A DNA stretch of 64,000 bases from Gammaproteobacteria bacterium (GTDB taxonomy: Bacteria; Pseudomonadota; Gammaproteobacteria; GCA-001735895): positions 861-64,860 of the forward strand of contig JACNJF010000194.1 of NCBI GenBank assembly GCA_014382695.1, read 5' to 3'. The first letter of the stretch is position 1; each line of letters begins with the position of its first letter. Both the position numbers and the translations under genes were made by a program. The notes under the pieces are model-generated. The model ran no database searches, had not been told where the DNA came from, and saw only the letters and a program-made list of their open reading frames with translations. Of the stretch, positions 1,302-46,057 are shown piece after piece.

Positions 1302-1622
1302 ATGGCACTTGAGTCAGTCGAAAGAACAGAAAAAGGTTACCTGGTCAATTCAAATGACTGGAATGAAGAAATCGCAGCAGAGCTTTTTGCAGAAGAAGGC
1401 ATTACTCCTACCAAAGAACACTGGGATATCATCAAGTACGTGCGTGAGGAAACGCTGGGTGGAGATGAGCCGAATGAGCGTAGCATCATGAAAGCGATGG
1501 GCAAGATCTGGGGGCGCAAGGTGAGCTCGAAGGAAATGTATGAAATGTTTCCCCTTATGCCGTCCAAGCAGGGTCTGAAGATTGGTGGTTGTCCGCAAAG
1601 TACCCGTAAAGGCGGTTATTGA
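1302..1622 (+). CDS. tusE: TusE/DsrC-family sulfur relay protein
   Basis: The sequence aligns with E. coli TusE: EGYL..W.E..A...AE.EGI.....HW....VR, then the LFP/MFP motif followed by KQGLKIGG-C. The Cys is conserved but the C-terminus is extended relative to canonical GLPKPxxC-x. Confidence 0.7.
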   Translation: MALESVERTEKGYLVNSNDWNEEIAAELFAEEGITPTKEHWDIIKYVREETLGGDEPNERSIMKAMGKIWGRKVSSKEMYEMFPLMPSKQGLKIGGCPQSTRKGGY

Positions 1623-2190: not shown

Positions 2191-5100
2191 ATGATTTTAG
2201 CGCAACCATTAACTCGACCGGATATAGGGATGCATCAGTCTATCTCTGTTGGCATCAATGGCTTATTCCATGATCTCGAATATAGTTTAAGTTTACTTTT
2301 CAATATATTGATTTATTTAGTATTTGTATCAATATTTCTGCTGTCTTCTGTTGCATTTGCCAATCAGGCACCTGGTTTTGTGGCAACCTCTTTACTACGC
2401 GTAGCCCTCGATGATAACTATCCACCATACGTCATGCGTAGGACTGATGGTTCAGTTGAAGGTTACCTGATCGATGAATGGAAGTTGTGGGAAGCTAAAA
2501 CCGGTGTCAAAGTCGAGCTGATTGCGACGGACTGGGCGCAGGCAAAAAAAAACATGGCAGAGGGCCGCTCCGATGTGATTGATACTATCTTCCGCACGTC
2601 TGAGAGGGAAACCCGACTGGAATTCAGTGCGCCATACGCGACCTTGCCCGTTTCCATCTATACGATTTCGAAACTGCTCGGTATCAATGATATCAACGGA
2701 CTGGAAGGCTTTCGGGTGGGTGTAAAGGATGGTGATGCCTGTGTCGACAGGCTGCGTGCCGGCGGAATTACCGATATAAAGCCTTATACCGATTATGAAA
2801 CCCTGTTGCAGGCAGTTCTGGCTGAGAAGGTGCATGTTTTCTGTATGGATGATCCCCCTGCCAATTATCTTATTTTCCGGGCTGGAGCCGAACACAAGCT
2901 ACTCAAGGCTTTTAGCCTGTATAGCGGAGAGTTTCATCGTGCCGTGCGCAAAGGTGATAGCGCGACTCTGGCTCTGGTTGAGTCGGGATTTGCAGCGATT
3001 ACAGCGCCTGAGCGTGAAGCGTTGCAGGATAAGTGGATGGGACAGAGCCTGCAAAATCCATTGCTACGCAATCTCATTTATTACCTTGTTATTGCTGCGA
3101 TCCTGGCGGTGTTACTGCTGGTCGTATCACTCATACTTCGCCATCTGGTGAGAGTACGCACAGCCGCTCTGGTCACTTCACAAAATAAACTGCAGGCGAC
3201 ACTGGATGCGTTACCGGACCTCTTGTTTGAGATGGATATCAACGGGTGTTATCTCGCTTACCACTCTCCCCGCACCGATTTACTGGCGCTTCCTGTCGAG
3301 CATTTTCTGGGCAAGAAAAACGATGAATTATTGCCGCCCGAAGTGGCTAAAATTGGCATGGAGGCAATACAAGAAGCCGCACAAATGGGCTTTTCCTCGG
3401 GCCGCCAGTTTGAGTTAAGGCTCGGTGGTGTGATTCACTGGTTTGAGCTATCGGTTGCTCGAAAATCGGGTGAGGCTGGCAAACTTCCTTCCTTCGTCGT
3501 ACTTTCTCGTGATATCACCTCACGTAAGCTGGCAGAGTTACAGGTTGCCCGTTTGACCCGTCTATACGCAGCCTTAAGTCAGTGCAACCAGGCGATAGTA
3601 CGTTGCACAACTGAAGCTGAGCTGTTTACCCAGATTTGCCGCGATGCGGTGAATTTTGGTGGGATGAAAATGGCCTGGATCGGTTTGATGGACGAAACCA
3701 CCAACAGTGTTAATCCAGTGGCCGCTTTTGGCGAGGGAATTAAGTATCTGGAGGGACTGGAGATTTCCCTGGATGCGAATTCAGCCAGTGGTCGTGGCCC
3801 GACCGGAATCGCCTTACGCGAAGACCGGCCTTACTGGTGCCAGGATTTTGAGCAGGATCCGGCTACTGCACTTTGGCATGAGCGCGCTGCAGAGTTTGGC
3901 TGGAAATCATCGGCGGCATTACCTCTTTACCGCAACAATATCATCATCGGTGCCTTTAATCTGTATGAAGATAGTGTCGATGCGTTTGATGAGGCCGCGC
4001 AAAACCTGCTGGTCGAAATGGCAACCGATATCAGCTATGCGCTGACCAATTTTGCCCATCAGCAAGCGCGCCAGCAGGCGGAACATGAACGTGAACAGTT
4101 GCTGCAACGAGAACAGCAGGCACGCAATGAAGCCGATAAAACGCGCCGGACCATCAGCGATATCATCGGTAGAATCAGTGATGGCTTCGTCGCACTGGAC
4201 AGAAACTGGTGCTACACCTATGTCAATTCTCAGGCTGCTGAGATGTTTGATCGTAGCGTAGAACAACTAGTCGGTAAGCATATCTGGACAGAGTTCCCCG
4301 AAGGGGTGGGGCAAAAATTTCAACTGGCCTACGAAAAAGCGATGCATGAGCAGAAACCAGCTTTTTTTGAGGAGTATTATCCACCTTATAAGCGCTGGTT
4401 TGAGAATCACATCTATCCATCCCCGGATGGGATATCGATTTACTTTCACGATGTCACCGAACGCAAGCGCATAGAGCAGGCATTACGCGAAAGTGAACAG
4501 GCTTACCGCGCTACTTTTGAGCAGGCCGCTGTGGGTATTGCAAATGTAGCAGCCGATGGGACCTGGCTCGAGGTTAATAACCGGCTGGCTGAGATTGTCG
4601 GCTATACGCATGATGAGTTACTCGAGTTGACCTTTCAGGACATCACGCATCCGGCTGATCTACAGAAAGATCTGGACAGTGTGCATCGGTTACTGGCTGG
4701 AGAAATCGATACCTACAAAATGGAGAAGCGCTATATCCGTAAGTCAGGTGACTTCATATGGATACAGTTAACTGCTTCGCTGGTGAAAAATGATGACGGA
4801 TCGCCCAAATACTTTATTTCAGTAATAGAGGATATCCATCAGCGTAAACTTGATGAGGTTCAATTGCATAAATTGTCGATCGTGGTTGAGCAAAGCCCCA
4901 ATCCCATCATGATTACCGATCTGGACACCAAGATTGAGTATGTGAATGCAGCTTTCAATCAAGTCTCCGGTTACAGTTCAGACGAAGCGCTGGGGAAAAC
5001 ACCGCAATTATTAAAATCAGGCGAGACTCCCATCGAGGTCTATCAGGATATGTGGGCACATCTTTTACGCGGTGAGGTATGGCGTGGAGAACTAACCAAT

Positions 5101-6531
5101 CAACGCAAGGATGGCAGCGTGTATGACGAGCTGGCGATCATTTCGCCGGTGCGTGATGCCAATGGAACTATCACCAATTATCTCGGCATCAAGGAAAACA
5201 TTACCGAGAAAAAGCATGCTGAAGCGCGCATTCAGCAACTGGCCTATTTTGACCAACTCACCGGCCTGCCCAATCGCAGCCAGTTGATTGACCGCTTCAA
5301 TTCTGCACTCAGTTTTGCGCAACGTAATACTGAGAAATTGGCGCTCATGTTTCTGGATCTGGATCATTTCAAGAATATCAATGACACCCTGGGGCATAGT
5401 ATTGGAGATAAATTACTGGTAAAGGTTGCGCACCGGCTTAAACGTATCCTGCGCGAAGAGGACACTTTATCGAGGCTGGGCGGTGATGAGTTCATCCTGT
5501 TATTGCCAAATACCGAGGAAGATGAAGCGCGCCAGATTGCGATTAAACTGATTGAAGCGATTGCTCTACCGTTTCAGCTTGATCAGTATGAACTGGGAAG
5601 TACGCTGTCGATAGGTATTGCGATCTACCCGCTTGATGGCGAAGACTTTGAAACACTGCTACGCAATGCGGATACCGCAATGTACCGGGTGAAACAGGCC
5701 GCGCGTAACGATTTCTGTTTCTTTACCGAGGAGATGCAACTGCATTCTGCGCGCGCATTGAAACTACTGAATGCATTACGTCATGCGCTGGCACGGAATG
5801 AACTGCAGCTACATTATCAGCCACAAATAGAGTTGGTCAGTGGAAGGGTGATTGGTGCGGAAGCCTTACTGCGTTGGAACAATGCTGAGCTGGGTATGAT
5901 TTCACCGGCTGAGTTTATCCCGATTGCGGAAGAGAGTGGACTGATTTTACCGATCGGTGAATGGGTGTTGCGCAGCGCAGTGACTCAGATGAAGCGCTGG
6001 ATGGATGACGGCCTGGCACCGATTGTCGTAGCCGTGAATCTGTCCGTGGTGCAGTTTCGTCATCCTAATCTGACCGACCTGGTCACACGGATACTGAAAC
6101 AGGCTGGTTTGCCGGCGCAGTATCTGGAGCTGGAGTTGACCGAGGCGGTTGCGATGAAAGATCCACAGGGTGCTATTGGAGTGATGAACCGATTGCATGA
6201 GCAAGGTATCCAGATGTCGATCGATGACTTTGGAACCGGTTATTCCAGTTTGAGTTATCTAAAGAAATTCAAGATTGCCAAACTCAAAATCGACCAGTCA
6301 TTTGTACGCGATATTATTGATGATCCGGATGATAGGGCGATTGTGGTTGCGATCATCAATCTGGCCCGTAGTCTGGGTATCCAAACCCTTGCCGAAGGGG
6401 TCGAAACGGAGCATCAGCAGTCACTCCTGCAGGCCCAGGGCTGTGATGAAGTGCAGGGTTATTACTACAGCAGACCGCTGCCGGCGGATCAGTTTGAAGC
6501 CTATGTGCGGAATAAGACAGGCTTAAATTGA
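2191..6531 (+). CDS. sensor diguanylate cyclase/phosphodiesterase: periplasmic SBP (family 3)-like domain, TM, GAF/PAS, three PAS/PAC, GGDEF, EAL
   Basis: Signal/TM segment LIYLVFVSIFLLSSVAFA. A solute-binding-like domain precedes a second TM. The GGDEF motif RLGGDEF is intact with an RxxD I-site (REED), and the EAL motifs EALLRW and DDFGTGYSSL are intact. The true start may lie downstream of 2191. Confidence 0.9.
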   Translation: MILAQPLTRPDIGMHQSISVGINGLFHDLEYSLSLLFNILIYLVFVSIFLLSSVAFANQAPGFVATSLLRVALDDNYPPYVMRRTDGSVEGYLIDEWKLWEAKTGVKVELIATDWAQAKKNMAEGRSDVIDTIFRTSERETRLEFSAPYATLPVSIYTISKLLGINDINGLEGFRVGVKDGDACVDRLRAGGITDIKPYTDYETLLQAVLAEKVHVFCMDDPPANYLIFRAGAEHKLLKAFSLYSGEFHRAVRKGDSATLALVESGFAAITAPEREALQDKWMGQSLQNPLLRNLIYYLVIAAILAVLLLVVSLILRHLVRVRTAALVTSQNKLQATLDALPDLLFEMDINGCYLAYHSPRTDLLALPVEHFLGKKNDELLPPEVAKIGMEAIQEAAQMGFSSGRQFELRLGGVIHWFELSVARKSGEAGKLPSFVVLSRDITSRKLAELQVARLTRLYAALSQCNQAIVRCTTEAELFTQICRDAVNFGGMKMAWIGLMDETTNSVNPVAAFGEGIKYLEGLEISLDANSASGRGPTGIALREDRPYWCQDFEQDPATALWHERAAEFGWKSSAALPLYRNNIIIGAFNLYEDSVDAFDEAAQNLLVEMATDISYALTNFAHQQARQQAEHEREQLLQREQQARNEADKTRRTISDIIGRISDGFVALDRNWCYTYVNSQAAEMFDRSVEQLVGKHIWTEFPEGVGQKFQLAYEKAMHEQKPAFFEEYYPPYKRWFENHIYPSPDGISIYFHDVTERKRIEQALRESEQAYRATFEQAAVGIANVAADGTWLEVNNRLAEIVGYTHDELLELTFQDITHPADLQKDLDSVHRLLAGEIDTYKMEKRYIRKSGDFIWIQLTASLVKNDDGSPKYFISVIEDIHQRKLDEVQLHKLSIVVEQSPNPIMITDLDTKIEYVNAAFNQVSGYSSDEALGKTPQLLKSGETPIEVYQDMWAHLLRGEVWRGELTNQRKDGSVYDELAIISPVRDANGTITNYLGIKENITEKKHAEARIQQLAYFDQLTGLPNRSQLIDRFNSALSFAQRNTEKLALMFLDLDHFKNINDTLGHSIGDKLLVKVAHRLKRILREEDTLSRLGGDEFILLLPNTEEDEARQIAIKLIEAIALPFQLDQYELGSTLSIGIAIYPLDGEDFETLLRNADTAMYRVKQAARNDFCFFTEEMQLHSARALKLLNALRHALARNELQLHYQPQIELVSGRVIGAEALLRWNNAELGMISPAEFIPIAEESGLILPIGEWVLRSAVTQMKRWMDDGLAPIVVAVNLSVVQFRHPNLTDLVTRILKQAGLPAQYLELELTEAVAMKDPQGAIGVMNRLHEQGIQMSIDDFGTGYSSLSYLKKFKIAKLKIDQSFVRDIIDDPDDRAIVVAIINLARSLGIQTLAEGVETEHQQSLLQAQGCDEVQGYYYSRPLPADQFEAYVRNKTGLN

Positions 6532-6547
6532 TGTTGTCTCGATCCGC

Positions 6548-7219
6548 TTAAAGTTCGACCCAGCGCCGCACCAGATTATTAAAGGTAGCACTAATCTTAC
6601 GGGTCGCTTCTGAGTTGGGTAATTCTTTATACAGCATTTCACGTGCCTGATTCAGCTCGTAAAGCATTTCGCGTTTTGCTGGATCGCGCACGGTACTTTG
6701 TGACCAGGTGACCGCAACCAGTCGAACTCCACTGGTAACCGGCGCGACATAATGACGACTATGCGACGGGTACATCACTGCAGAACCGGCTTGCAGCTTG
6801 ATCTGCCTTTCACCATAGCTATCCATGATGGTCAGTTCGCCCCCTTCATAGTCTTCCGGATCGGATAAGAAAATGGTGGTTGAGACATCGGTGCGGTAGA
6901 GTTCTCCCTGACCCATGATCGGATCATCGACATGTTCACCATACGCCATACCCTGTTCATAACGCACATAAAACGGGGCCGCGACACGTTTTGGCCACAC
7001 CACCGCCTTAAATTTCGGGTGGCGCACCAGGTTACCCATTACCAATTCATTGAGTTCATTAAAATGGCTCGATTGCGGATTCATTTCCTGATTATTTTTG
7101 ACCCCCCTGGCCATCATGCCTGCAGAAAGCCTGCCATCGACGAAAGGGGAATCCTGCAGTAACTGCCTTATTTTAGTCAGGTTTTGTGCGGATATAAGGT
7201 GATCAATAGAAGCTAACAT
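6548..7219 (-). CDS. ybiX: PKHD-type Fe(II)/2OG hydroxylase (YbiX/PiuC-like)
   Basis: Length of about 223 aa and overall similarity to the YbiX family (2OG-Fe(II) oxygenase fold). Confidence 0.75.
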   Translation of the reverse strand: MLASIDHLISAQNLTKIRQLLQDSPFVDGRLSAGMMARGVKNNQEMNPQSSHFNELNELVMGNLVRHPKFKAVVWPKRVAAPFYVRYEQGMAYGEHVDDPIMGQGELYRTDVSTTIFLSDPEDYEGGELTIMDSYGERQIKLQAGSAVMYPSHSRHYVAPVTSGVRLVAVTWSQSTVRDPAKREMLYELNQAREMLYKELPNSEATRKISATFNNLVRRWVEL

Positions 7220-7253
7220 AGGTATAATGACTCAAAAATTGACAGGAAAACGC

Positions 7254-7574
7254 ATGATACTGAATATCCTAATTGAAGACCAAAGTTATCCCGTGGAAGT
7301 GCCGGAGGCGATTGTGATGGAAGCCGGTGATTATTTTCAGACTCTGGACAAAGATATGGACAAGGGCTGGCAGATGAGTCGAAGCTGGGTGGATAAGCCC
7401 AATGTCGAGCAGCGTTGTCAGATCGTGGCCGACCGGATTCTGGGTGCATTTGAGCAGGAAAATAAAGCCTCACTGGTGATGCTGTCGGCGTATATCCTGT
7501 CGCGCTACCCGAGCGTGAAGAGCGTTTCGATTAGTACCGATGGTGAAATGCAGGAAACTTCTTTCGACTTTTAA
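7254..7574 (+). CDS. hypothetical protein
   Basis: An ORF-track ATG sits at 7227. A better start is at 7254, which has AGGAAA 3 nt upstream. The gene is divergent from the ybiX-like gene. Confidence 0.45.
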   Translation: MILNILIEDQSYPVEVPEAIVMEAGDYFQTLDKDMDKGWQMSRSWVDKPNVEQRCQIVADRILGAFEQENKASLVMLSAYILSRYPSVKSVSISTDGEMQETSFDF

Positions 7575-7655
7575 AGGTTTTTTTTAAATCCAGGCTGCGC
7601 TGTCTTGCTAACCCGCTTAGCAATGCTGTTCTGACGGTGCCCATCGAAACGGTGT

Positions 7656-8657
7656 ATGGTGTTGAAGCAAATTTACCTCTCTCTGATATTCCTGTTCAGC
7701 GTGCCGTTAAGCGCGCAGACGGCTTGCTGGGAGATAGAAAATAACGACCAGCGTCTGGCTTGCTACGACCAGCAGGAACAAGCTGCCGAAGACGCGCTAC
7801 CTCTGGACCGGATCAAAAGCCGGAAAACACCGGAGGAGGGTGAATACTCGCTGTTGAATGAGCGCTGGGAGCTGGATCAGGATCTGGTGCAATACGCCTT
7901 TCGTGCCTATAAACCGGTTTATTTTCTGCCTATTGCCTACAGCTCAGATGTGAATACATCACCACGCACCAATAATCCCATCACAAGCGTTACCGATGAA
8001 CTCAACATCGATCATCTGGAAGCGCGACTGCAGCTCAGTTTCAAAACCAAATTGATCAACGATGTGATTGGTGATAATGGGGATCTGTGGTTCGGCTATA
8101 CCCAGTCATCACACTGGCAACTGTACAATACCGCAGAGTCGCGCGCGTTCCGTGAAACCAATCATGAGCCCGAGTTCATGTTTGTGTGGCGTACCGATTA
8201 CAGCCTGTTCGGTTTTCATGGCAGGATGCTCAGTTTGAGCCTGAATCATCAATCCAACGGTCAGGATGAACCCCTTTCACGTAGCTGGAACCGCATTATT
8301 CTGACCGTCGGTTTTGACCGTCCGGACTGGGTGGTGCAACTGCGCCCCTGGTGGCGGATACCGGAACGGTCTGCGGAAGAGGATGAAAACCCGGATATTG
8401 AAGATAGTATTGGGCGTGGCGAACTGCTGATCGTTCACCGCAAGAAAAACTCACATCAGATTGCGACCCAGATACGTCACTCATTCGAGCGTCTGGAACA
8501 GGCTCAGGGGTCGATTAAGGTGGACTGGTCTTATCCCTGTTTTCATCGACTGCGCTGTCATGCTCAGGTCTTTCACGGCTATGGTGAAAGCCTGATCGAC
8601 TTTAATCATAAAACCACCAGTGTTGGCCTCGGTGTCGCCTTAGTGGAATGGTTTTAA
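7656..8657 (+). CDS. pldA: outer membrane phospholipase A (OMPLA)
   Basis: Signal peptide is present, and the catalytic region LNHQSNGQDEPLSRSWNRI matches E. coli PldA (HESNG...SRSWNR). Confidence 0.85.
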   Translation: MVLKQIYLSLIFLFSVPLSAQTACWEIENNDQRLACYDQQEQAAEDALPLDRIKSRKTPEEGEYSLLNERWELDQDLVQYAFRAYKPVYFLPIAYSSDVNTSPRTNNPITSVTDELNIDHLEARLQLSFKTKLINDVIGDNGDLWFGYTQSSHWQLYNTAESRAFRETNHEPEFMFVWRTDYSLFGFHGRMLSLSLNHQSNGQDEPLSRSWNRIILTVGFDRPDWVVQLRPWWRIPERSAEEDENPDIEDSIGRGELLIVHRKKNSHQIATQIRHSFERLEQAQGSIKVDWSYPCFHRLRCHAQVFHGYGESLIDFNHKTTSVGLGVALVEWF

Positions 8658-9034
8658 GTTTTTCTCAATAGCGCTTACGTGCGATAGTTTATTGTTTAAA
8701 ACGACCACTTCAGTGCAAAGCTGACAGTCTATTTTAAGAAAGTCTGGTTATTTAAATTACTCACGCTTCCAGAGGTGCGCCATTTAATTCTGGATGTTAT
8801 AGGAAACAGGGGTTTCAGGCATTATCGCCAGGTGTCTACTATCTACCAATGGCTCTTTCTTCTTTTATCCACGTTAAGCCCTGTAATTTTCAATTTAACA
8901 GTGGTTTAAACTCTAAATGTCTCACTACATGAAGGCGTTCAACAAAATTATTAGCAAGTAGCCACAAGTTATTAGAACAGGAATAAGTCTCATTTATACT
9001 GCATCCATTCATAGTCACCCACCAGGTATACAGT

Positions 9035-11302
9035 ATGTCCGAAGATTTTCGCGAAAAAGCACTTGAATACCATCAATTTCCAACCCCCGGTAAATTATGT
9101 ATTCAGTCTACCGTACCTTTAACCACTCAGCGGGATCTGGCGCTAGCGTATTCGCCCGGAGTGGCTTATGCCTGTGAAGAGATTGAAAAGGATCCGTTGA
9201 AAGCGAGTGACTATACCGCGCGTGCCAATCTGGTTGGCGTCATAACGAATGGTACTGCAGTACTGGGTCTGGGTGCTATTGGCCCACTGGCCTCCAAGCC
9301 GGTGATGGAAGGGAAGGCGGTACTATTCAAGAAATTTGCCAATATCGATGTGTTTGATATCGAGATCAAGGAAGAGGATCCGATCAAGCTGGCGCAGACG
9401 ATCGAACGTCTGGAGCCTACCTTCGGCGGCATCAATCTGGAAGATATCAAGGCACCCGAATGCTTCATCGTGGAAGAGTATCTGCGTAAACATATGTCGA
9501 TACCGGTATTTCATGATGATCAGCATGGTACCGCGATCGTGGTTGCTGCCGCTTTAACCAGCGCCCTGGAGCTGGTTGGCAAGCCGATCGATAAGATCAA
9601 GCTGGTCTCATCCGGCGCAGGTGCAGCCGCGTTGGCCTGTCTTAACCTGCTGGTTTCGATGGGGCTGCCACGCGAAAATGTGATTGTCACGGATATCGAT
9701 GGCGTAGTTTATAAGGGCCGGGTGAAAGGGGCCGATCCGTATAAAGATCGCTATGCGGTGGACACTCCACATCGTACCCTGGCCGATGCCATCGCAGGTG
9801 CCGATGTATTTCTTGGCCTGTCAGCGGCGAATGTGCTGAAGCCTGCAATGCTGAAAACTATGGCCGAGCAGCCGGTCGTGTTCGCACTGGCGAATCCTAA
9901 CCCGGAAATTAATCCACTCGATGCGGTCAAGGTGCGTGATGATTTAATCATTGCAACCGGCCGTTCAGATTTTCCAAATCAGGTTAATAACGTGCTGTGT
10001 TTTCCTTTTCTTTTCCGCGGTGCGCTCGATGTCGGGGCCACCGAAATCAATGAAGAAATGAAGATTGCAGCGGTACATGCCATCTCGCGTCTGGCACGCG
10101 CCGGCAGTACTTCGGATATCGTCAGTTCTGCGTATGCGGGACAGTCACTACGCTTTGGACGCGAGTACCTGATACCAAAGCCGTTTGACCCACGTCTGAT
10201 CATTGAAATCGCGAGTGCAGTGGCACAGGCCGCGATGGACTCTGGTGTAGCCACCCGACCCATTGCTAATATGGCTGAGTATCGCGATAAGTTAACCAGT
10301 TTTGTGTATCGCTCTGGTTTGATCATGAAGCCAGTCTTTGAGCTGGCCAGAAACAGCCAGAAAAAGGTCGTTTTCCCAGAAGGTGAAAACCTGAAGGTGT
10401 TACAGGCGGTTGAAAATATTGTGCAGGATCGGCTCGCATTTCCGATTTTGTTAGGTCGCCCCGAGATCATCAAGGCGCAGATCAGCGAATATGGTTTGAG
10501 CATGCAGGAAGGGCGTGATTTTCAGATTATTTACGATACTGATGTCGAGAAATACGCCAGCAGCTATTACCAGATCATGCACAGACGAGGCGTCACCCTG
10601 ATGGAAGCAGAATCTCTGGTGCTGTCGAGTACTACGCTACAGGCCGCATTGATGGTTAAGCTGGGCGAAGCGGATACCTTTATCTGTGGTTCGATCGGTC
10701 GTTTCAATCAGCACCTGAAGCAGGTGATGGATGTTGCCGAACAACCGGATGGTGAGCAGCATATCTCGACTTTGAATGTGCATATATTAAATACCGGCAC
10801 TATCTTCATCTGCGATACCCAGGTCACGGTAAATCCGGCTGCTGAAGATATTGCTCAAATGGCGATAGCGGGTGCACGTGAAGTCGAACGTTTTGGAATC
10901 AAGCCACAGGTGGCGCTGCTATCGCACTCCAATTTTGGTAACCGAGATTCTGCTTCGGCCAGAAAAATGCGTGAAGCACTGGCTATCATTCGTAAACTGG
11001 ATCCAACGCTGGAAGTTGATGGTGAAATGCAAGCTGAATCGGCACTCTCTGCGGCTAAGCGCGGTGAAAAATTTGCCGATTCCAATCTGCAGGGTGCGGC
11101 TAATTTACTGGTGATGCCAAATCTGGACGCGGGTAATATCACCTCTAGCGTGTTACATGTGCTGGGCGGCGGAGTTTCCATCGGTCCTATTTTGATGGGC
11201 TGCAAGCTGGCCGGACATGTGGTGAATTCATCGATCAGTGTACGCGGCCTGGTGAATATGACCGTGGTTGCAGTGGCGCAGACTATTCAAGCTGCAAACT
11301 AA
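9035..11302 (+). CDS. maeB: NADP-dependent malic enzyme (malic enzyme domain plus phosphotransacetylase-like domain)
   Basis: The 755-aa product has a malic-enzyme N-terminal half and a PTA-like C-terminal half, which is the typical MaeB architecture. Confidence 0.95.
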   Translation: MSEDFREKALEYHQFPTPGKLCIQSTVPLTTQRDLALAYSPGVAYACEEIEKDPLKASDYTARANLVGVITNGTAVLGLGAIGPLASKPVMEGKAVLFKKFANIDVFDIEIKEEDPIKLAQTIERLEPTFGGINLEDIKAPECFIVEEYLRKHMSIPVFHDDQHGTAIVVAAALTSALELVGKPIDKIKLVSSGAGAAALACLNLLVSMGLPRENVIVTDIDGVVYKGRVKGADPYKDRYAVDTPHRTLADAIAGADVFLGLSAANVLKPAMLKTMAEQPVVFALANPNPEINPLDAVKVRDDLIIATGRSDFPNQVNNVLCFPFLFRGALDVGATEINEEMKIAAVHAISRLARAGSTSDIVSSAYAGQSLRFGREYLIPKPFDPRLIIEIASAVAQAAMDSGVATRPIANMAEYRDKLTSFVYRSGLIMKPVFELARNSQKKVVFPEGENLKVLQAVENIVQDRLAFPILLGRPEIIKAQISEYGLSMQEGRDFQIIYDTDVEKYASSYYQIMHRRGVTLMEAESLVLSSTTLQAALMVKLGEADTFICGSIGRFNQHLKQVMDVAEQPDGEQHISTLNVHILNTGTIFICDTQVTVNPAAEDIAQMAIAGAREVERFGIKPQVALLSHSNFGNRDSASARKMREALAIIRKLDPTLEVDGEMQAESALSAAKRGEKFADSNLQGAANLLVMPNLDAGNITSSVLHVLGGGVSIGPILMGCKLAGHVVNSSISVRGLVNMTVVAVAQTIQAAN

Positions 11303-11380
11303 ACTCAGGCACAGGGATCAGCTTGACAATATAAGTAAATACTAATATTGTTATAGCCTTTTACGGATCTGTAAAAGGCT

Positions 11381-12769: not shown

Positions 12770-12855
12770 ATCAATTCCTGGATCAATAATAGTGTCTGCT
12801 GGTATCCATTCTGAGCAGCGTTTAGAATGGACGGATTGACTGGACTCACTCAATT

Positions 12856-13023
12856 ATGCAATTTCTGATTATACTACTGCTGGTACTCTCTTTTTTTCTG
12901 TATCAAACCTTCCGATTATGGCCCAAGGTCGAATTACGTCGTTATCTGGTGCTGTTATTGATTGTCGATACCTGGCTGAGCATCGTACTGATGTATCTGT
13001 TTTATAGTGCGCTTTTTGATTAA
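12856..13023 (+). CDS. possible small membrane protein (55 aa, two TM helices)
   Basis: I translated this ORF manually; it is not in the track because it is under 60 aa. Sequence: MQFLIILLLVLSFFLYQTFRLWPKVELRRYLVLLLIVDTWLSIVLMYLFYSALFD. Confidence 0.3.
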   Translation: MQFLIILLLVLSFFLYQTFRLWPKVELRRYLVLLLIVDTWLSIVLMYLFYSALFD

Positions 13024-13033
13024 TAGAGCGTTT

Positions 13034-13408
13034 TCAATCAAGATGTAACTCGGAACTTTTGAGAATGGCCTCAATACGGTCTTCAAAATCGGCTCCTATC
13101 GGCTTTGAGATGTAGTTATCGCAGCCGGATTTAATCGCCTTCTGACTATCGGCGCTCATCACCGAAGCGGTTACGGCAATAATCAGTCCGCCATAGCCAC
13201 TCTCACGTAGCTTGCGTGTAGCCTGATGCCCATCCATGACCGGCATATGCATATCCATCAGCACCAGGTCAAAATCGCCCGCAGGCGCTTTTTCGACCGC
13301 TTGCTGACCATTGAACGCCAGCTCAACCTGATGTTTGCGCAGGGTCAGTCTCATGTTAATCATGCGGCTGATGAATTCATCATCCTCGACCAGTAAGATT
13401 TTAGCCAT
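13034..13408 (-). CDS. single-domain response regulator (CheY-like receiver)
   Basis: VEDDEF, the phospho-acceptor D in LVLMDMHMP, and the conserved K in ISKP. Confidence 0.9.
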   Translation of the reverse strand: MAKILLVEDDEFISRMINMRLTLRKHQVELAFNGQQAVEKAPAGDFDLVLMDMHMPVMDGHQATRKLRESGYGGLIIAVTASVMSADSQKAIKSGCDNYISKPIGADFEDRIEAILKSSELHLD

Positions 13409-13413
13409 TCTGT

Positions 13414-15969
13414 TTACTCCTGCTTAAGCGTGAAAGAAAAAGTGGTGCCTGAACCATAGATGCTCTCCACCTGTATGTTGCCACCATGTAACTCGACTAG
13501 ACGTTTTGTAATGGCCAGACCAAGCCCCGAACCGCCCACATTGCGGGTGGATGAATCATCGACCTGATGAAAGGTATCAAATATGAATGGCAGTTCCTTC
13601 TGTGGGATGCCAATACCAGTATCGGCCACGCTGAAGGTAACCCGTTTATCCTGTTGCACCGCCGATATTTTTATACTGCCCTGGCGGGTAAATTTAAGCG
13701 CATTTCCGAGCAGGTTGATCAAAATCTGACGCAGGCGACGTGCATCGACCTGAAACTCAAAATCTTGCGCATCGGTCATCAGCTCAATCGACTTGCGCTC
13801 GGCCAGGTTTTCAAACTTGCGTATCATCTCCTGGATTAGCGGGAGGCTGTGGATTGTTTCCAGTTGAAGATCCATCTGGCCGGCTTCTATCTTGGAGATG
13901 TCGAGTAGATCGTTGATCATTTCGAGTAGATGGTTGCCGGAAATATCCATATCGTTGGCGATCTGTGCAATGATTTCAGCAGATGGCATCTGTTCCAGGT
14001 TTTTTAGCATGGGCAGATAACCCAGAATGACGGTGAGAGGGGTACGCAGCTCATGACTCATCACGTTCAGAAACGCTGACTTTTGCCGGTTAGCATCTTC
14101 GGCGGCCAGCTTTGCCCTGAGCATGGCCTGTTCCGAGCGTTTTTGCTCGGTAATATCCAGGTTCACCCCGATCATGCGCTGGGCACGCTTTTGATCATCC
14201 AGCACTACCAGTGCAGAGGCCTTGATATGGCGTTCTTCATGATTCGGCCACAGGATACGAAACTCCGTTTCGAAAGACTTGCCATTCTGAATCGCGTCAT
14301 TCAGTTCTGCTTTGGTGCGCAGTAGATCATCCGGATGCAGCGCTCCCTGCCAGGCTTCGTAGGCATCAGGAAACTGATCTTTGGTGAGGCCATACAGGTC
14401 GAACATACGTTTATCCCAGTTCAGGGTGTTCTGGATCACATCAAAATCCCATACCCCAATACTACCGGCACGAGCGGCCAGCTCCAGACGATCATTAAAT
14501 TCCTTTAACTCGTTTTCCTGCTGTTTCATATCGGTCAGGTCCTTAACTGTACCGATAAACAGTGTGCCCCCATTCACCTGAGCCTGTCCGACCGACAGGT
14601 TCATCGGGAAGGTGAGCCCTGATTTTCTTTTACCGACCACTTCACGTCCGATACCAATGATGCGCTTTTCATGGGTTTGCTGATAATGATCCAGATAACC
14701 GTCATGCTCAGAATGGTATGGCTCAGGCATCAGGATTTTAATATTCTGACCGATCACTTCTTCGGCACTATATCCAAACATTTTTTCAGCCGCAGGGCTG
14801 AATAGACTGACAATACCCAGAGGATTGATCGTGATCACGGCATCGACGGCATTCTCAACGATTGTCCGGTTCATCTTTTCACTTTCAACCAGTTGCCGAC
14901 TGCGCTGGTTAACCAGTTTTTTAATGACAACCTCGCGGTTAATCAGATTGCGTAGATAAAAGCTGATCAGCAGGGTGAAGGTTATACCCACCGCTAACAC
15001 CAGCCACTCGGTCTGTTTGGAATGCAGCTGGGCAAACTGGGTGGTGGCGATACTGGTGATGCGCCAGGTACGGTTAGCAATCTGGATATCCCTGGCATAG
15101 CGCCAGCGCCAGCCTGGCAGGGGTTCCAGTTGCGCCGAAGATTTCATGCTATAGAGTAGTTCGGTATCTGCCAGATCAGTGATATCGATGATCTTTATCA
15201 TCAGTGGATCGAGTAATGCCTTGAGTGGCTGAATGGCCGATTTAAACAGGTCGCCCACGCGAAATACGCCTAACACATAGCCATTAAATCTTTCCTGCGA
15301 CAGGGTCTGGTTTTTTTCTAGCGGTACAAATATGGGTTGAATAATCAAAAATCCCTTTTGTCGGGCGGATGCCTGAATCAGGGTAATGCTTGAGGTTGCC
15401 TGCGTTTGCCGGCTTAGACGTGCCATTTGCAGACTGGCCATGCGCTCGGGACTGGTTGCAAGATCAAACCCTAATACCGCCATGTTTCTGGCCAGGGGTT
15501 CAACATAAAACACCGGGTAATATACCCAGTGATCCTGGGTTGGGATTAGTTTTCCTTCGGCGTTTTGTGACCTGAACTCAAAATCAGTCAGGCCGTCCGC
15601 AAGCGCATTTAAGCGATAGGTTTCACGTTCGCTGGCCATCACCTGCGGAACCCATTCCATGGCATGGATTGAAGCGTTATCCCTGATCAGGGATTCGGTA
15701 AAGCGGAAGAAGTCTTCCCGGCTGACCTCGGGAGACACCATAAAAAACCGTTGTATACCGGATAGTCTGCTCTGATTGATTTCGAGTTCCTTACTCAGCG
15801 CATCGATGGCGAGCTGAGTGGCGCTTTCGTGTTCGACCTGAATGGTGCGGTTTTCCAGCTCTACTGCGACCCGAAACGCCAGAAAACTTAAGCCTAATCC
15901 TGTAAATAGAACCAGCCAGTGAATAAAGCTATTGCGCTGTTCCCGGTAAGGCTGCTGCATGGTTAACAT
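13414..15969 (-). CDS. sensor histidine kinase with periplasmic CHASE domain, PAS/PAC domains, HisKA and HATPase_c
   Basis: Two TM helices flank a periplasmic domain of about 250 aa. The H-box is MSHELRTPL, and the ATPase G-boxes are GSGLGLAI. There is no fused receiver. Confidence 0.9.
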   Translation of the reverse strand: MLTMQQPYREQRNSFIHWLVLFTGLGLSFLAFRVAVELENRTIQVEHESATQLAIDALSKELEINQSRLSGIQRFFMVSPEVSREDFFRFTESLIRDNASIHAMEWVPQVMASERETYRLNALADGLTDFEFRSQNAEGKLIPTQDHWVYYPVFYVEPLARNMAVLGFDLATSPERMASLQMARLSRQTQATSSITLIQASARQKGFLIIQPIFVPLEKNQTLSQERFNGYVLGVFRVGDLFKSAIQPLKALLDPLMIKIIDITDLADTELLYSMKSSAQLEPLPGWRWRYARDIQIANRTWRITSIATTQFAQLHSKQTEWLVLAVGITFTLLISFYLRNLINREVVIKKLVNQRSRQLVESEKMNRTIVENAVDAVITINPLGIVSLFSPAAEKMFGYSAEEVIGQNIKILMPEPYHSEHDGYLDHYQQTHEKRIIGIGREVVGKRKSGLTFPMNLSVGQAQVNGGTLFIGTVKDLTDMKQQENELKEFNDRLELAARAGSIGVWDFDVIQNTLNWDKRMFDLYGLTKDQFPDAYEAWQGALHPDDLLRTKAELNDAIQNGKSFETEFRILWPNHEERHIKASALVVLDDQKRAQRMIGVNLDITEQKRSEQAMLRAKLAAEDANRQKSAFLNVMSHELRTPLTVILGYLPMLKNLEQMPSAEIIAQIANDMDISGNHLLEMINDLLDISKIEAGQMDLQLETIHSLPLIQEMIRKFENLAERKSIELMTDAQDFEFQVDARRLRQILINLLGNALKFTRQGSIKISAVQQDKRVTFSVADTGIGIPQKELPFIFDTFHQVDDSSTRNVGGSGLGLAITKRLVELHGGNIQVESIYGSGTTFSFTLKQE

Positions 15970-17609
15970 TCATCATGAATAATAGTTTTGTTACGGCCAC
16001 TTTCCTTGGCCTGATAAAGGGCTTCATCCGCCGCTTCTATCAGCTTATTTTCCTGGCTGAAAGTGGTGCTGCCGGATATCCCTGCGCTAAAACTGCACTT
16101 AAACTCTTCCTTGTCACTCTTGAACGTTAGCTGAGAAAAAGAAACACGCAGTTTTTCAATGATTTCGAAGGCGGCATCCGGACTGGTATTCGGCATGATA
16201 ATACCAAATTCTTCGCCACCGTAACGCCCAATCAGATCGGATTTACGCAGGCGATCTGTCAGCAATTGCGCAAGAGATTTGAGTACTCGGTCGCCAATCG
16301 AATGGCCGAAACGGTCATTAACCTGTTTAAACAGGTCTATATCCAGCATCAGGTAACTGAGTGGTTCATTTTGACGCTGGCTACGAGCCAGTTCGGATTC
16401 AACCCGGCGTTTAAGGGTGATCTGATTGAGTAAGCCGGTCAGGCCATCGTGATACATCAGCTCGCTGAGGGTGCGCGAACGCTCTATTCTCGACTCAATG
16501 GTACTGATCAACTGTTTATCATCGATCGGTTTTACCAGAAAATCATCGCCCTGTTGCAGGGTCTGCAGCTGGATTTTACGGTTGGTTTCGGTCGACAGAA
16601 AAACAATCGGTGTACTGAAGTAGGTTTGATGCTGGCGCAATACGCTGGCGACTTCAAGACCGGTGATGCCTGGAAAATAAAAATCAAGCAACACCAGTTC
16701 CGGCTGAAACAAGGACATTTGCTCAAGGATGTGTTCTGGATCTGCTAATACGCTGGTATGCATACCCGCCTGACGTAATACCAGGCTGTAGTGCTGGGCC
16801 AGTTCTTCGGTATCGTCTACCACCAGCACCCGGTAGGGCTCGCGCCGGACCCGTTGCGTGATCAGATCCAGGTGATTCACCAGTTCGGAAATATCCAGTG
16901 GTTTTTCCAGGTAAGCGGAGCCACCTGCGCGCACCGCGGCGAGCCGGGATTCCCAGTCCTTGCGTTGAGAGATGAACAGAGCAGGTACCGGTTGCTGTAA
17001 AAGCTGGCGTATCTCGGAGGCAAACTGAGTGCCCGCTAATACACCTTCGGGCAAAATGATATCGAGTACCAGTGCATCCGGTATCTGCATTTCTACCATT
17101 TTTCTGGCGTCAGTCGCGGATGAAAATAAATGGGTTCTAAATCCATAATGTTGCAACTGCAGGCACAGATCCTGTCCCTGAAAAGCTTCATCTTCCACGA
17201 TATATATCAGACGCTGGGCCATGATGGATGGGGTAGTCAGCTGTTCCAACGGCTCAATAATCGAGGTGTTTTCAGGCCCGTTCTCAATCAGGGTATGCAA
17301 TGCCTGCAATCCCCGAACGAGATATTTTGTGGTTTTGCTATCCAGCGTATTTTTCTGGTTTATCGCCTCTTTGAGGATTAATTCCAGTTGGCGCGACTGC
17401 TCACTTAACTGAAAAAATCCGAAGGTACCGGCTGATCCACTCAGACTATGGATCTGGCGGAATATGTCATGCAGCATGGTTGCCGGGTCCGAATGATCGA
17501 CCAAACCATTCAGATCCGCAATCATCTGATCTACGCGAATCCCAAGATTAGCGGCAAACTCCAGCCTGAGAGCCGCTAACTGTTGCTGTATGTCATCCTG
17601 TCCGGGCAT
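15963..17609 (-). CDS. response regulator with N-terminal HPt domain, two receiver domains and a GGDEF (GGEEF) diguanylate cyclase domain
   Basis: HPt-like His in QIHSLSGSAG. Two REC domains (IVEDE...LDIILP and VVDDT...LDFYFP). GGEEF motif with an RKSD I-site. The gene overlaps the HK gene by 7 nt. Confidence 0.9.
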   Translation of the reverse strand: MPGQDDIQQQLAALRLEFAANLGIRVDQMIADLNGLVDHSDPATMLHDIFRQIHSLSGSAGTFGFFQLSEQSRQLELILKEAINQKNTLDSKTTKYLVRGLQALHTLIENGPENTSIIEPLEQLTTPSIMAQRLIYIVEDEAFQGQDLCLQLQHYGFRTHLFSSATDARKMVEMQIPDALVLDIILPEGVLAGTQFASEIRQLLQQPVPALFISQRKDWESRLAAVRAGGSAYLEKPLDISELVNHLDLITQRVRREPYRVLVVDDTEELAQHYSLVLRQAGMHTSVLADPEHILEQMSLFQPELVLLDFYFPGITGLEVASVLRQHQTYFSTPIVFLSTETNRKIQLQTLQQGDDFLVKPIDDKQLISTIESRIERSRTLSELMYHDGLTGLLNQITLKRRVESELARSQRQNEPLSYLMLDIDLFKQVNDRFGHSIGDRVLKSLAQLLTDRLRKSDLIGRYGGEEFGIIMPNTSPDAAFEIIEKLRVSFSQLTFKSDKEEFKCSFSAGISGSTTFSQENKLIEAADEALYQAKESGRNKTIIHDEC

Positions 17610-17756
17610 AGGGCTTTTATACTCACGATTAAAAAAATACGATAAATTAGATTAATAAATCAGTATAAACTTGTTTTATAGTTCTGTACTAGGCGTCAGA
17701 TTCATATTAATGTAATGTCCAGTTTTTATGTGGTTTTAAGGTAAGAGAGAGCAGCA

Positions 17757-19847
17757 TTGGAAAGCGCTAATATCCTGATCGTAGAAGATGACCTTTTCGA
17801 GGCAGAGCATCTTAAACTACACCTGCAACAGGCAGGTCATCATATCGTAGATATCCTCAGCTCTGGCGAAGAAGCTATCGCCAGAGTTAACCACAATGGG
17901 ATCGATATCATGTTGGTGGATATCGTACTATCCGGAGAGCTGGATGGTATCGAGGCGGTACAACAAATCCGTAATAAACAGGATATTCCTGTCATTTTTC
18001 TGACCGCACATGTGAATGCTGATTTGCTGTTAAGGGCAGAACGAGCACGACCTTTCGCTTATCTACTCAAGCCCTATCGTCAGCTTGAGCTCGAATTCAT
18101 GATTAACATGAGTCTGGCCCGGAAGCGCGTTGAACAGGAATTGGCAACCCAGAAAGATCTGGCTGAAGCTGAATTACGTCAGGCTCAGGCCATTATTCAT
18201 CATACCAATGAAGGGGTGATGATTACGAACTCAGAAAGAATTATTATGTTCGTAAATCCGGCATTCAGCCGGATCACAGGTTATGAGCTGGATGACTGTA
18301 TCGGACAGAAAACGAGCATTCTGAATTCAGGCCGGCATGATGATGCGTTTTATGCCGATATCTGGTTTTCCATAGAGCATTACGGTCACTGGCAGGGTGA
18401 GCTATGGAACCGGCGTAAAAATGGTGAAATTTATCCGGAATGGTTGACGATAAATCCTATAGCTGAGCGTGATGGCAGTATCCGTCGTTATGTGGGTATC
18501 TTTTCTGATATCTCCAGCATCAAGCAGTCTGAAGCGGAGCTGGAACATCTCGCGCATCACGACCCGCTGACCAATCTGCCCAATCGCCTGTTATTGATGA
18601 CACGATTGCGCTATTCGCTACGCACCGCTTCCCGTCACCGACTGATGTGTGCGGTGCTGTATATCGATCTGGATCGTTTCAAGTTGATCAATGACAGCCT
18701 CGGGCATGAAATCGGGGATGTGGTTTTACAGACGGTTGCACGGCGATTCGAGAATCAGGTGCGCGAAGCCGATATGGTGGCACGTCTGGGCGGTGATGAA
18801 TTCGTGGTACTGCTGGAAGGCATCACTGATCCGGTCGATGCTTCGCTGATTGCACAAAAAATCATTCAGTCTCTGGAGCAACCGGTGATGGTGAATGACC
18901 ATCGTTTTTCGATCAGTTGCTCCATCGGTATTGCGATTTACCCGAAGGATGGGAATACGGTGGAGGACCTGTTACGTGATGCCGATTCGGCCATGTATCA
19001 GGCCAAAAAAATGGGTATGAACAATATCGTTTTTTACACCGAAGATATGACGCGTAAGGCTTATCGACGCATCAAACTCTACAGTGAGTTACGTCAGGCG
19101 CTGGTTAATCAGGAATTCAGACTCCATTATCAACCCCAGATCAATATGAAGTCAGCCAGCTTAATCGGGGTAGAAGCCCTGATCCGCTGGAAGCATCCTG
19201 AGAAAGGATTGATGGGGCCGAAGCATTTTATCCAGGAAGCCGAAGATACCGGACTGATCATTCCGATTGGAATATGGGTGTTGCAACAGGCCTGCCGGGA
19301 TATGAAGTCCTGGCTCGATAAGGGCCTGAAGTTTGGACGCGTATCGGTGAATGTCGCCGGTCCGCAGCTACAACGTGGTGATTTACTAACCGTGGTGAAT
19401 ATGGCGCTGGCAAAAGCGGAATTAAAACCGCAGTATCTGGAACTGGAGCTGACCGAGACCTATGCCATGGAACTGATAGAATCGCATCTACAGACACTCA
19501 ATGACCTCAACACCATGGGCGTCAGCATCGCTATCGACGATTTCGGTACCGGCACATCATCACTGAGTAAGCTGAAAAATCTGCACATCGACAAACTCAA
19601 GATTGATCGCTCATTTGTCACCGATATCCCGATGGATAAAAACGATGAAGCGATTACCCGTGCAATTATCGGGATGAGTCACACGCTGGGTCTGAGTGTG
19701 ATCGCGGAAGGGGTCGAGACGAAATCACAGGAACAGTTTCTGATTCGTGAAAACTGCCTGTTTGCTCAGGGCTTTCTATACAGCAAGCCGCTCAATATTA
19801 TTGAATTTGAAAAATTTGCGGCGAAATACAATCCACTACCGGATTGA
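17757..19847 (+). CDS. response regulator REC-PAS-GGDEF-EAL
   Basis: TTG start. REC domain (ILIVEDD...MLVDIVL), PAS domain, GGDEF with READ I-site, and EAL (EALIRW, DDFGTGTSSL). Confidence 0.9.
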   Translation: MESANILIVEDDLFEAEHLKLHLQQAGHHIVDILSSGEEAIARVNHNGIDIMLVDIVLSGELDGIEAVQQIRNKQDIPVIFLTAHVNADLLLRAERARPFAYLLKPYRQLELEFMINMSLARKRVEQELATQKDLAEAELRQAQAIIHHTNEGVMITNSERIIMFVNPAFSRITGYELDDCIGQKTSILNSGRHDDAFYADIWFSIEHYGHWQGELWNRRKNGEIYPEWLTINPIAERDGSIRRYVGIFSDISSIKQSEAELEHLAHHDPLTNLPNRLLLMTRLRYSLRTASRHRLMCAVLYIDLDRFKLINDSLGHEIGDVVLQTVARRFENQVREADMVARLGGDEFVVLLEGITDPVDASLIAQKIIQSLEQPVMVNDHRFSISCSIGIAIYPKDGNTVEDLLRDADSAMYQAKKMGMNNIVFYTEDMTRKAYRRIKLYSELRQALVNQEFRLHYQPQINMKSASLIGVEALIRWKHPEKGLMGPKHFIQEAEDTGLIIPIGIWVLQQACRDMKSWLDKGLKFGRVSVNVAGPQLQRGDLLTVVNMALAKAELKPQYLELELTETYAMELIESHLQTLNDLNTMGVSIAIDDFGTGTSSLSKLKNLHIDKLKIDRSFVTDIPMDKNDEAITRAIIGMSHTLGLSVIAEGVETKSQEQFLIRENCLFAQGFLYSKPLNIIEFEKFAAKYNPLPD

Positions 19848-38125: not shown

Positions 38126-38134
38126 TGACGGTTC

Positions 38135-46001: not shown

Positions 46002-46057
46002 TGGAGTGCTGGCTATTCGTCAAGCATGACGAGTAGCCATTGACTCTGGTGACCCGG

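Follow-up and report, generated by a model that had tools for sequence, protein, structure and literature searches.

We analysed 64,000 nucleotides from an uncultured gammaproteobacterium that is represented by metagenome assemblies only (assembly GCA_014382695.1, contig JACNJF010000194.1, positions 861 to 64,860; hereafter the window) and found that the stretch from 2191 to 19847 probably contains two independent devices for signalling by c-di-GMP (cyclic dimeric guanosine monophosphate). One is a four-gene phosphorelay cassette (13034-19847), in which a split His-Asp-His-Asp relay would lead to a diguanylate cyclase and a phosphodiesterase. The other is an unrelated one-component sensor that resembles RmcA (2191-6531). 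The original prediction had treated these 18 kb as a single hub coupling periplasmic ligand sensing to c-di-GMP turnover. Its four large regulators were confirmed above gathering scores by Pfam, on which our domain calls are based: an SBP-PAS-GGDEF-EAL protein of 1446 aa, a CHASE-PAS histidine kinase of 851 aa, an Hpt-REC-REC-GGDEF protein of 548 aa and a REC-PAS-GGDEF-EAL protein of 696 aa. The active sites held as well. All three GGDEF domains have their A-sites (PF00990, 152-177 bits) and an RxxD inhibitory site (I-site; REED, RKSD and READ) five residues before GG[DE]EF, and both EAL domains are full length (PF00563, 261 and 232 bits) with their catalytic motifs readable in the translations. 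The single hub had to be given up, since only 13034-19847 is conserved as a unit and neither the 1446-aa protein nor the interspersed metabolic genes lie beside it in relatives. The prediction had overlooked a stand-alone receiver (lone REC) and a 462-aa membrane protein, as well as two domains: GAF in the 1446-aa protein and, in the kinase, a haem-PAS of the FixL type.

Relatives were traced from homologues of the 548-aa cyclase to the contigs that carry them; the closest other species in the genome collection is 60% identical (L016). The cassette, in which a REC-(PAS)-GGDEF-EAL gene stands divergent from an Hpt-REC-REC-GGDEF gene that is followed by a sensor kinase gene and then a lone REC gene, recurs with wholly different flanks at L016 (60% identity), L088 (56%), L089 (50%, with GAF in place of CHASE) and L090 (45%). 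The metagenome scan described below added a further case (L095). Since the same four genes recur in unrelated contexts without the 1446-aa gene or the metabolic genes, which accompany them only within the same species, we take 13034-19847 to be the conserved unit. Judged by this comparison, the clustering of the four genes is more than chance, a statement that does not extend to the 1446-aa gene.

Metagenome contigs were scanned with an alignment of Hpt-REC1 (A1), adding 80 loci, which were annotated with hidden Markov models built from the window domains. Of the non-redundant loci, 46 extend for 3.5 kb or more to either side of the cyclase gene; in this set, 43 have a same-strand histidine kinase gene within 6 kb and 38 also a lone REC gene, completing a core triad; neither partner was found in three. 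One culturable carrier of the triad is Dyella subtropica. Two gene orders occur: cyclase-kinase-REC in the clade of the window versus kinase-REC-cyclase in the more distant majority, in which hybrid kinases are frequent. Without exception, the kinases of the window's clade are non-hybrid and carry a haem-PAS, and their genes are directly followed by the REC gene. The predicted link from kinase to receivers to c-di-GMP enzymes draws strong support from the conservation of gene order.

The RmcA-like sensor is encoded at 2191-6531 (plus strand; gene callers start it 13 codons later). Pfam and hydropathy give a transmembrane (TM) segment, SBP_bac_3 (aa 69-285), a second TM segment, PAS, GAF (473-618), three PAS domains, GGDEF (171 bits) and EAL (261 bits), with PAS_4 matching four stretches. 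SBP_bac_3 lies between the two hydrophobic segments and is therefore placed in the periplasm. REED is followed after 5 aa by GGDEF (1088-1101; GGDEF 1097-1101). The best match in the Protein Data Bank (PDB) is the RmcA tandem (5m3c, 415 bits), and the GGDEF-adjacent PAS matches NifL (TIGR02938, E=1e-33). Its best NCBIfam model is DibA (NF045675), but identity with DibA was rejected: the scores recorded for this model in the window, 702 and 624 bits, stand against a cut-off of 980. RmcA of Pseudomonas aeruginosa (PA0575) likewise combines a periplasmic Venus-flytrap/SBP domain with several cytoplasmic PAS domains and GGDEF-EAL (PMC9028604); the likeness is one of architecture and tandem match, and the 1446-aa protein differs by its additional GAF domain. 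Three GGDEF genes lie within 18 kb, and the other 44 kb of the window yielded no further gene for a GGDEF, EAL, kinase or receiver protein. The gene layout is identical in all same-species contigs, and the distant relative L090 has an SBP_bac_3-GGDEF gene, of smaller size, at a distance of about 5 to 7.5 kb from its cassette. All this would suit one integrated hub that includes the 1446-aa protein, but we regard such a hub as very improbable. The 1446-aa gene is separated from the cassette by 6.5 kb and by four unrelated genes, not all on one strand, and no homologue of it was found beside the cassette at L016, L087-L089, L091-L093 or the P0030 locus. Neither were pldA, maeB or the ybiX-like gene at L016 and L087-L093; they adjoin it in same-species contigs only. 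In addition, the 1446-aa protein has periplasmic and cytoplasmic sensors of its own and, since it lacks a receiver and an Hpt domain, no phosphorelay input to it is possible. Gammaproteobacteria typically have many GGDEF and EAL genes, so that a single additional one nearby is unremarkable. The 1446-aa protein, presumably larger than RmcA, is probably an independent RmcA-like one-component enzyme and a bystander of the cassette, and pldA, maeB and the ybiX-like gene are probably bystanders too.

The first gene of the cassette operon (15963-17609, minus strand) encodes the 548-aa response-regulator diguanylate cyclase, composed of Hpt (aa ~5-112; PF01627, 34.6 bits, cut-off 24.6), REC1 (~133-250), REC2 (~259-375) and GGDEF (386-541, 152 bits). 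The Hpt domain has the H-x-x-x-G-S-x-G motif, with His54 in HSLSGSAGTFG, invariant in 104 homologues and in alignment A1. The predicted phospho-acceptors are Asp183 in REC1 and Asp309 in REC2. The I-site RKSD (R455-D458) is followed after 5 aa by GGEEF (464-468; 455-468 in all), and the GRN motif is present. Among the 104 aligned homologues, His54, D183/S214/K236, D309/K360, RxxD and GGEEF are kept in at least 95%, except the second Glu of GGEEF (E467), kept in 80-95%; each relay position is therefore under selection. By their residues neither REC1 nor REC2 is a pseudo-receiver, unlike the second domain of PleD. PleD and DgcR are the best PDB matches (2wb4, 1w25, 6zxm), and since the alignment of REC2-GGDEF with DgcR and PleD D2-GGDEF runs over the full length, REC2 is marked as the receiver that would gate catalysis. 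Orthology with PleD (NF007135) was rejected: the score is 209 bits against a cut-off of 474, REC2 retains Asp309, Ser/Thr and Lys360, and there is an extra Hpt domain.

The Hpt-REC N-terminus is widespread, with 223 clusters (50% identity) at E<=1e-30 and 2149 at E<=1e-10. We found no biochemical study of this module in a literature search that had subscription journals outside its coverage. Hpt-REC-REC is also fused to a PAS-histidine kinase or to GGDEF-EAL (P0109; L121 655-4218; L166 2339-5062; L173 6992-10837; L155 2334-4772; L171 2-2386), and some of these alternative-output fusions adjoin a canonical Hpt-REC-REC-GGDEF gene. As far as domain order tells, Hpt-REC-REC behaves as a portable input module.

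The next gene (13414-15969, minus strand) encodes the 851-aa sensor histidine kinase, delineated by Pfam, hydropathy, motifs and translation. TM1 (aa 18-36), CHASE (81-273; PF03924, 139 bits) and TM2 (321-340) are followed by the haem-type PAS, PAS_3 (516-603), HisKA and HATPase_c. Hydropathy puts CHASE between the two hydrophobic segments and hence in the periplasm. The transmitter is complete, with His639 in the H-box and N, G1 and G2 boxes (NLLGNA, DTGIGI, GSGLGL), and since it is without a receiver domain the kinase is not hybrid. Its best NCBIfam match is FixL, centred on residues 360-495. A phmmer comparison with the PDB aligned the first PAS domain (PAS1, aa ~367-491; 14497-14871, minus strand) with the Bradyrhizobium japonicum FixL haem domain over 125 aa without a gap (E=4.7e-36), about half of the positions being identical by eye, and the 13 best matches were all haem-PAS proteins (FixL, EcDOS/DosP). 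The proximal His of FixL (H200) corresponds to His422 (in HSEHDGY) and the distal O2-contacting Arg (R220) to Arg442 (in IGIGR). Judging from this alignment, PAS1 is closely homologous to the haem domain with which FixL senses oxygen, and we infer that it binds haem. Of the periplasmic ligand sensing that had been predicted, the periplasmic CHASE domain stands, but it is only half of the input: the sensor common to the whole clade is the cytoplasmic FixL-type haem-PAS.

PAS1 might instead sense NO, CO or redox state, bind no haem or only dimerize, leaving CHASE as the real input. Haem-PAS proteins do differ in ligand selectivity, two haem-pocket residues of FixL are exchanged in the window kinase (R206 to His, H214 to Arg), and CHASE is well conserved in most close relatives. 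We nevertheless consider this unlikely in view of the long gapless alignment and because the proximal His and the equivalent of the O2-binding Arg220 are both kept in 10 related kinases (L016, L087-L093 and L018 among them). In addition, the haem-PAS persists where CHASE has been lost or replaced by GAF (L089, L093, L098-L100). Two further ideas about this domain were dropped. Orthology with FixL failed on score (NF041777, 252 bits against a cut-off of 850) and on the lack of a FixJ-type regulator at the locus. After 11 loci the FixL-type PAS had seemed universal to the triad, but in the larger sample only 19 of the 43 kinases had a haem-PAS by a strict criterion that asked for both the His...GxGR motif and an hmmsearch score of 60 bits or more.

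The last gene of the operon (13034-13408, minus strand) encodes the 124-aa lone REC (Pfam Response_reg, 85 bits), which retains Asp52, Thr80 and Lys102. The original prediction had proposed a phosphorelay from the CHASE kinase; the kinase and the relay domains stand, but it had missed this receiver, which makes a four-step relay possible with a non-hybrid kinase. All parts of a multistep relay (H639, D52, H54, D183/D309) are present and linked in three genes that abut or overlap: the cyclase and kinase genes overlap by 7 nt, and a gap of 5 nt separates the kinase gene from that of the lone REC. To our knowledge, an Hpt domain can be loaded only from an Asp. Since the kinase has no receiver, the most economical route would be His639 to Asp52 to His54 to Asp309 (and/or Asp183). 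The two best NCBIfam matches of the lone REC are receivers of hybrid kinases (PRK15347, BarA); further matches to RcsC, ArcB and TorS are interspersed with ordinary response regulators. When the receivers of all loci were compared, it clustered with the lone RECs of other loci and with receivers of hybrid kinases. Furthermore, 11 of the 120 best homologues are REC-Hpt-REC-REC-GGDEF fusions in a single polypeptide, which put a domain like the lone REC directly before Hpt, as in unorthodox kinases. These are P0044, P0048, P0052, P0056, P0060, P0075, P0080, P0088, P0093, P0101 and P0111 (671-688 aa). The same fusion is found at L021, an 806-aa ORF in a Pseudanabaena metagenome-assembled genome. 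At the FATGUY motif of intermediate receivers (PMC9981736) the lone REC has AVTASV instead, a test that does not discriminate.

The fourth gene (17757-19847, plus strand, TTG start) is divergent from the operon and encodes the 696-aa response-regulator GGDEF-EAL protein. Pfam gives Response_reg (Asp55), PAS (aa ~144-253), GGDEF (177 bits) and EAL (232 bits), and READ is followed after 5 aa by GGDEF (336-349; GGDEF 345-349). The full EAL catalytic set, EAL(L/I)RW, N, ELTE, DDFGTG, KID, EGVET and Q, is present in this and in the 1446-aa protein. The K..GRN motif, which holds the phosphate-binding Lys/Arg and reads GRN in the 548-aa cyclase, is ARN in the 1446-aa protein and GMN in the 696-aa protein, whose orthologues at L016, L088, L089 and L090 retain the EAL residues, GGDEF and the I-site but vary at the GRN Arg. 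The best PDB match is again the GGDEF-EAL tandem of PA0575/RmcA (5m3c, 432 bits), and the tandem is closest to RmcA and MorA. The PAS domain matches best 3ewk (MmoS), 2gj3 (NifL), LOV domains and Aer, and it is without the LOV cysteine. In both GGDEF-EAL proteins of the window the GGDEF-adjacent PAS (18186-18515, plus strand; 4882-5244, plus strand) is of the NifL/MmoS-like, flavin-binding type lacking the LOV cysteine, which suggests redox inputs.

By analogy the 696-aa protein is probably a phosphodiesterase. The RmcA tandem is a GTP-dependent phosphodiesterase (PMC9028604) and PdeR, another regulator with REC, GGDEF and EAL domains, a kinase-activated one (PMC6637768), so that net hydrolysis is likelier. 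All EAL catalytic residues are intact, and the GRN Arg is Met here and varies in orthologues, which likewise speaks against the protein being a second cyclase or a bifunctional enzyme that would leave the cassette without push-pull logic. We consider that alternative quite unlikely, although GGDEF and RxxD are intact, as are most positions that bind GTP and metal, and orthologues conserve them, and bifunctional REC-GGDEF-EAL regulators are known from the literature. Lpl0329 of Legionella is reportedly one of them.

At L087 the partner (7916-9877, minus strand) has a REC-PAS part 62% identical over 265 aa to that of the 696-aa protein, but its output is HisKA-HATPase-REC. The same swap of output domains was seen at L096 and L098-L100. 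Since REC-PAS is kept while the output is exchanged, the input rather than the output is tied to the operon, which speaks for the partner being phosphorylated by the cassette and not being a chance neighbour. At L102 an ORF of ~1265 aa (6491-10285, plus strand), scored as Hpt-PAS-GGDEF-EAL, lies 1.6 kb downstream of a window-type cassette, possibly another way of tying a phosphodiesterase to the relay.

From the domains, the catalytic and phospho-acceptor residues and the gene linkage we infer a route for the phosphoryl group and a sign for each step. The kinase would integrate two signals, one from a periplasmic ligand and one from O2 (or another ligand of haem), and autophosphorylate on His639. 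Having no receiver of its own, it would pass the phosphoryl group to Asp52 of the lone REC, from where it would reach His54 of the cyclase Hpt domain and then the cyclase receivers. Phosphorylation of REC2 (Asp309), which directly precedes GGDEF as in DgcR, WspR and PleD, would drive a dimer rearrangement that switches on c-di-GMP synthesis, and the RxxD I-site would limit the output. The 696-aa protein would take phosphate on Asp55 from the same relay, its flavin-type PAS adding a redox input. One kinase would then set both synthesis and breakdown of c-di-GMP.

Several observations weigh against this reading, in addition to the two exchanged haem-pocket residues. Only within the window's clade do all the kinases have the haem-PAS. 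About half of the close relatives either lack the GGDEF-EAL partner or have another protein in its stead (L087, L096, L098-L100 and the P0030 locus, where it is absent), and it is absent from all loci with the order kinase-REC-cyclase except one distant copy (L092). With its near-intact GGDEF domain the 696-aa protein may be bifunctional. The sign of phosphorylation differs between known phosphodiesterases: it activates PdeR, but lower phosphorylation of PcrR goes with activated phosphodiesterase (PMC6637768). The only studied cyclase of the Hpt-REC-REC-GGDEF architecture, HtDGC, is fed by a chemosensory kinase (PMC5907407; bioRxiv 10.1101/2024.04.09.588698). In many distant relatives the kinase itself is hybrid (1-2 receivers) and the lone REC is still there, so the latter need not be an obligatory intermediate, and it may be a phosphate sink or a side output. 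The order of transfer is not fixed by sequence either, since REC1 and REC2 both keep the acceptor Asp.

These last points would also fit a simple branched two-component system. In such a system the kinase would directly phosphorylate REC1 of the cyclase and the REC domain of the GGDEF-EAL protein, Hpt would move phosphate from REC1 to REC2 of the same protein or drain it, and the lone REC would be a sink or a separate CheY-like output. Where the kinase is hybrid, an intermediate receiver is already there; both cyclase receivers retain all acceptor residues; and the 696-aa REC has its nearest relative in the window in REC1 (35% identity). We nevertheless hold this system to be the less probable arrangement, though a serious candidate. 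The similarity of REC1 to the partner REC was not reproduced at L016, L088 or L090, and we also discarded the notion, raised by that identity and by similar alpha-1 helices, that the two form a pair sharing one phosphodonor. The REC-Hpt fusions and the hybrid-kinase matches of the lone REC argue for an intermediate, as does the window's clade, which has no hybrid kinases and in every case has the REC gene right behind the kinase gene. Our preferred reading remains the split relay through the lone REC.

The cassette would work like several known systems and, as judged by model scores, is the orthologue of none, although each part is of a known kind: PleD, FixL, DibA, DgcR and all other NCBIfam equivalog models scored below their cut-offs. 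Closest in architecture is HtDGC of the Wsp-like HtChe2 system of Halomonas titanicae KHS3, also an Hpt-REC-REC-GGDEF protein with three phosphorylatable relay domains, A-site and I-site (PMC5907407). But HtDGC is fed by a chemoreceptor and a CheA-type kinase with CheB and CheR, whereas the window cyclase would be fed by a CHASE/haem-PAS kinase, and the REC-PAS-GGDEF-EAL partner sets the cassette further apart from HtChe2. No MCP, CheW, CheA, CheB or CheR gene was found in the window. According to the authors of the HtDGC study, no cyclase of this organization had been characterized (PMC5907407), and in a later preprint the control of the Halomonas cyclase is still presumed (bioRxiv 10.1101/2024.04.09.588698). 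In Thiopseudomonas (L012, L013, L015, L017) members of the cyclase family lie beside a lone REC in a chemosensory-type context, which matches this only published case of the architecture, HtChe2. There a 350-aa REC-containing ORF and an Hpt-HKcore-REC kinase adjoin the cyclase gene; in our reading they are CheB-like (by size) and CheA-like (by domain order).

PleD of Caulobacter and DgcR of Leptospira share the REC-REC-GGDEF core, GGEEF and RxxD, and activation by receiver phosphorylation and dimerization would be expected here too. Unlike PleD, whose second receiver is a non-phosphorylated adaptor (PMC5907407), the window cyclase adds an N-terminal Hpt domain and its REC2 keeps the acceptor Asp. 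With FixL of B. japonicum and Sinorhizobium meliloti the kinase shares the whole aligned haem domain and the HisKA/HATPase transmitter after it, but it has an extra periplasmic CHASE domain, and its partners are a REC, an Hpt-cyclase and a REC-phosphodiesterase rather than a FixJ-type factor. In Anabaena PCC 7120 the CHASE-PAS kinase CdgK controls the REC-GGDEF cyclase CdgS via a His-Asp-His-Asp relay (PMC9927289). There the intermediate REC and the Hpt domain are fused to the kinase, whereas the window has a plain kinase, a separate REC gene and the Hpt domain on the cyclase, and CdgK/CdgS has no phosphodiesterase partner. PcrK/PcrR of Xanthomonas offers a CHASE kinase that regulates a c-di-GMP phosphodiesterase response regulator through a four-step relay, and PdeK/PdeR (RavS/RavR) a REC/GGDEF/EAL regulator with the architecture of the 696-aa protein, its phosphodiesterase activity being triggered by the kinase (PMC6637768). 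Both resemble the cassette by architecture but have a single enzyme output and no Hpt-cyclase, and the PcrR-type regulator is listed among HD-GYP proteins in a review (PMC6637768). DosC/DosP of Escherichia coli also couples a haem sensor to paired c-di-GMP synthesis and breakdown, and window proteins match the haem-PAS and the GGDEF-EAL of DosP in the PDB. However, these are one-component enzymes with haem fused to the catalytic domains, whereas in the window the haem-PAS sits on a kinase and would act via phosphotransfer. As far as comparison of architectures allows, three things set the cassette apart: the way in which the relay is divided up (a plain kinase, a putative intermediate receiver encoded separately, Hpt on the cyclase), a FixL-type sensor leading to a cyclase instead of FixJ and, in this clade, a paired receiver-phosphodiesterase with a flavin-type PAS. 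A description of a FixL-type kinase with an Hpt-REC-REC-GGDEF partner was not found in the literature search either, subscription journals lying outside its coverage.

Between the cyclase operon and the phosphodiesterase gene lies a divergent, AT-rich intergenic region of 147 bp (17610-17756), the presumed shared promoter region of both units. A sigma-70 consensus scan found no promoter site in this region, and promoter and terminator scans of 12700-20000 had no result there either and returned fewer promoter-like sites than shuffled sequence did. The interspersed ybiX-like, pldA and maeB genes of the original prediction were borne out by Pfam and NCBIfam as a PKHD/YbiX-type hydroxylase (6548-7219, minus strand), PldA (phospholipase A1, PLA1; 7656-8657) and MaeB (malic enzyme-phosphotransacetylase (PTA); 9035-11302); a 115-aa ORF lies at 7227-7574. 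Between maeB and the cassette, the 462-aa membrane protein (11381-12769, plus strand) carries a number of hydrophobic segments at its N-terminus, then a charged helical part and another hydrophobic segment, and it gave no Pfam or NCBIfam match. A 55-aa ORF called by metagenome annotators follows 3' of it (12855-13022, plus strand); both occur in same-species contigs only. On one same-species scaffold (L003) the 696-aa and 462-aa genes are each broken into two ORFs (6812-8916 and 13904-15284), either by a frameshift or by an error of assembly.

The flanks consist of ordinary core genes (aat, trxB, ftsK, lolA, rarA), and the remainder of the window is given over to housekeeping. At its left edge a Cas6 gene (PF09559, 194 bits; 504-1196, plus strand) is followed by a DsrC/TusE-like gene (1302-1622, plus strand). 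No CRISPR repeats were found beside it in 1-2300, so that an array or cas operon, if there is one, lies off the window, or Cas6 is an orphan. A Beta_propel protein (PF09826, 665 aa; 48528-50525, plus strand) precedes a homologue of lipase maturation factor (LMF1 and LMF1_C; 50944-52416, plus strand), a family known best in eukaryotes. No Pfam match at E<=0.001 was obtained for five ORFs of 267-527 aa (39514-40632, plus; 46040-46843, plus; 52611-53771, minus; 56786-58369, minus; 61040-61933, plus). The first of them comes after a Sel1 / AAA_5 / DUF2201 (VWA-like metallopeptidase) gene set at 36612-39505.

For annotation, the mere nearness of GGDEF and EAL genes does not make a hub. A defined cassette with predicted His and Asp sites provides a testable model for the use of an Hpt domain fused to a cyclase, and for why both receivers of that cyclase are phosphorylatable. 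Control of c-di-GMP by O2 is known mainly from one-component haem enzymes (DosC/DosP) and globin-coupled cyclases, and two-component control of cyclases from PleD, WspR and CdgS. We tentatively propose, as an idea that could well prove wrong, that the cassette is a widespread gas- and redox-responsive c-di-GMP switch built from a FixL-type haem kinase and a split relay that leads, without a transcription factor, to a diguanylate cyclase and in this clade also to a flavin-PAS phosphodiesterase. Through it, one O2 signal might set synthesis and degradation reciprocally within seconds, with Hpt-REC-REC as its portable part. The cassette would join haem-based O2 control to two-component control of a cyclase, with paired cyclase and phosphodiesterase outputs.

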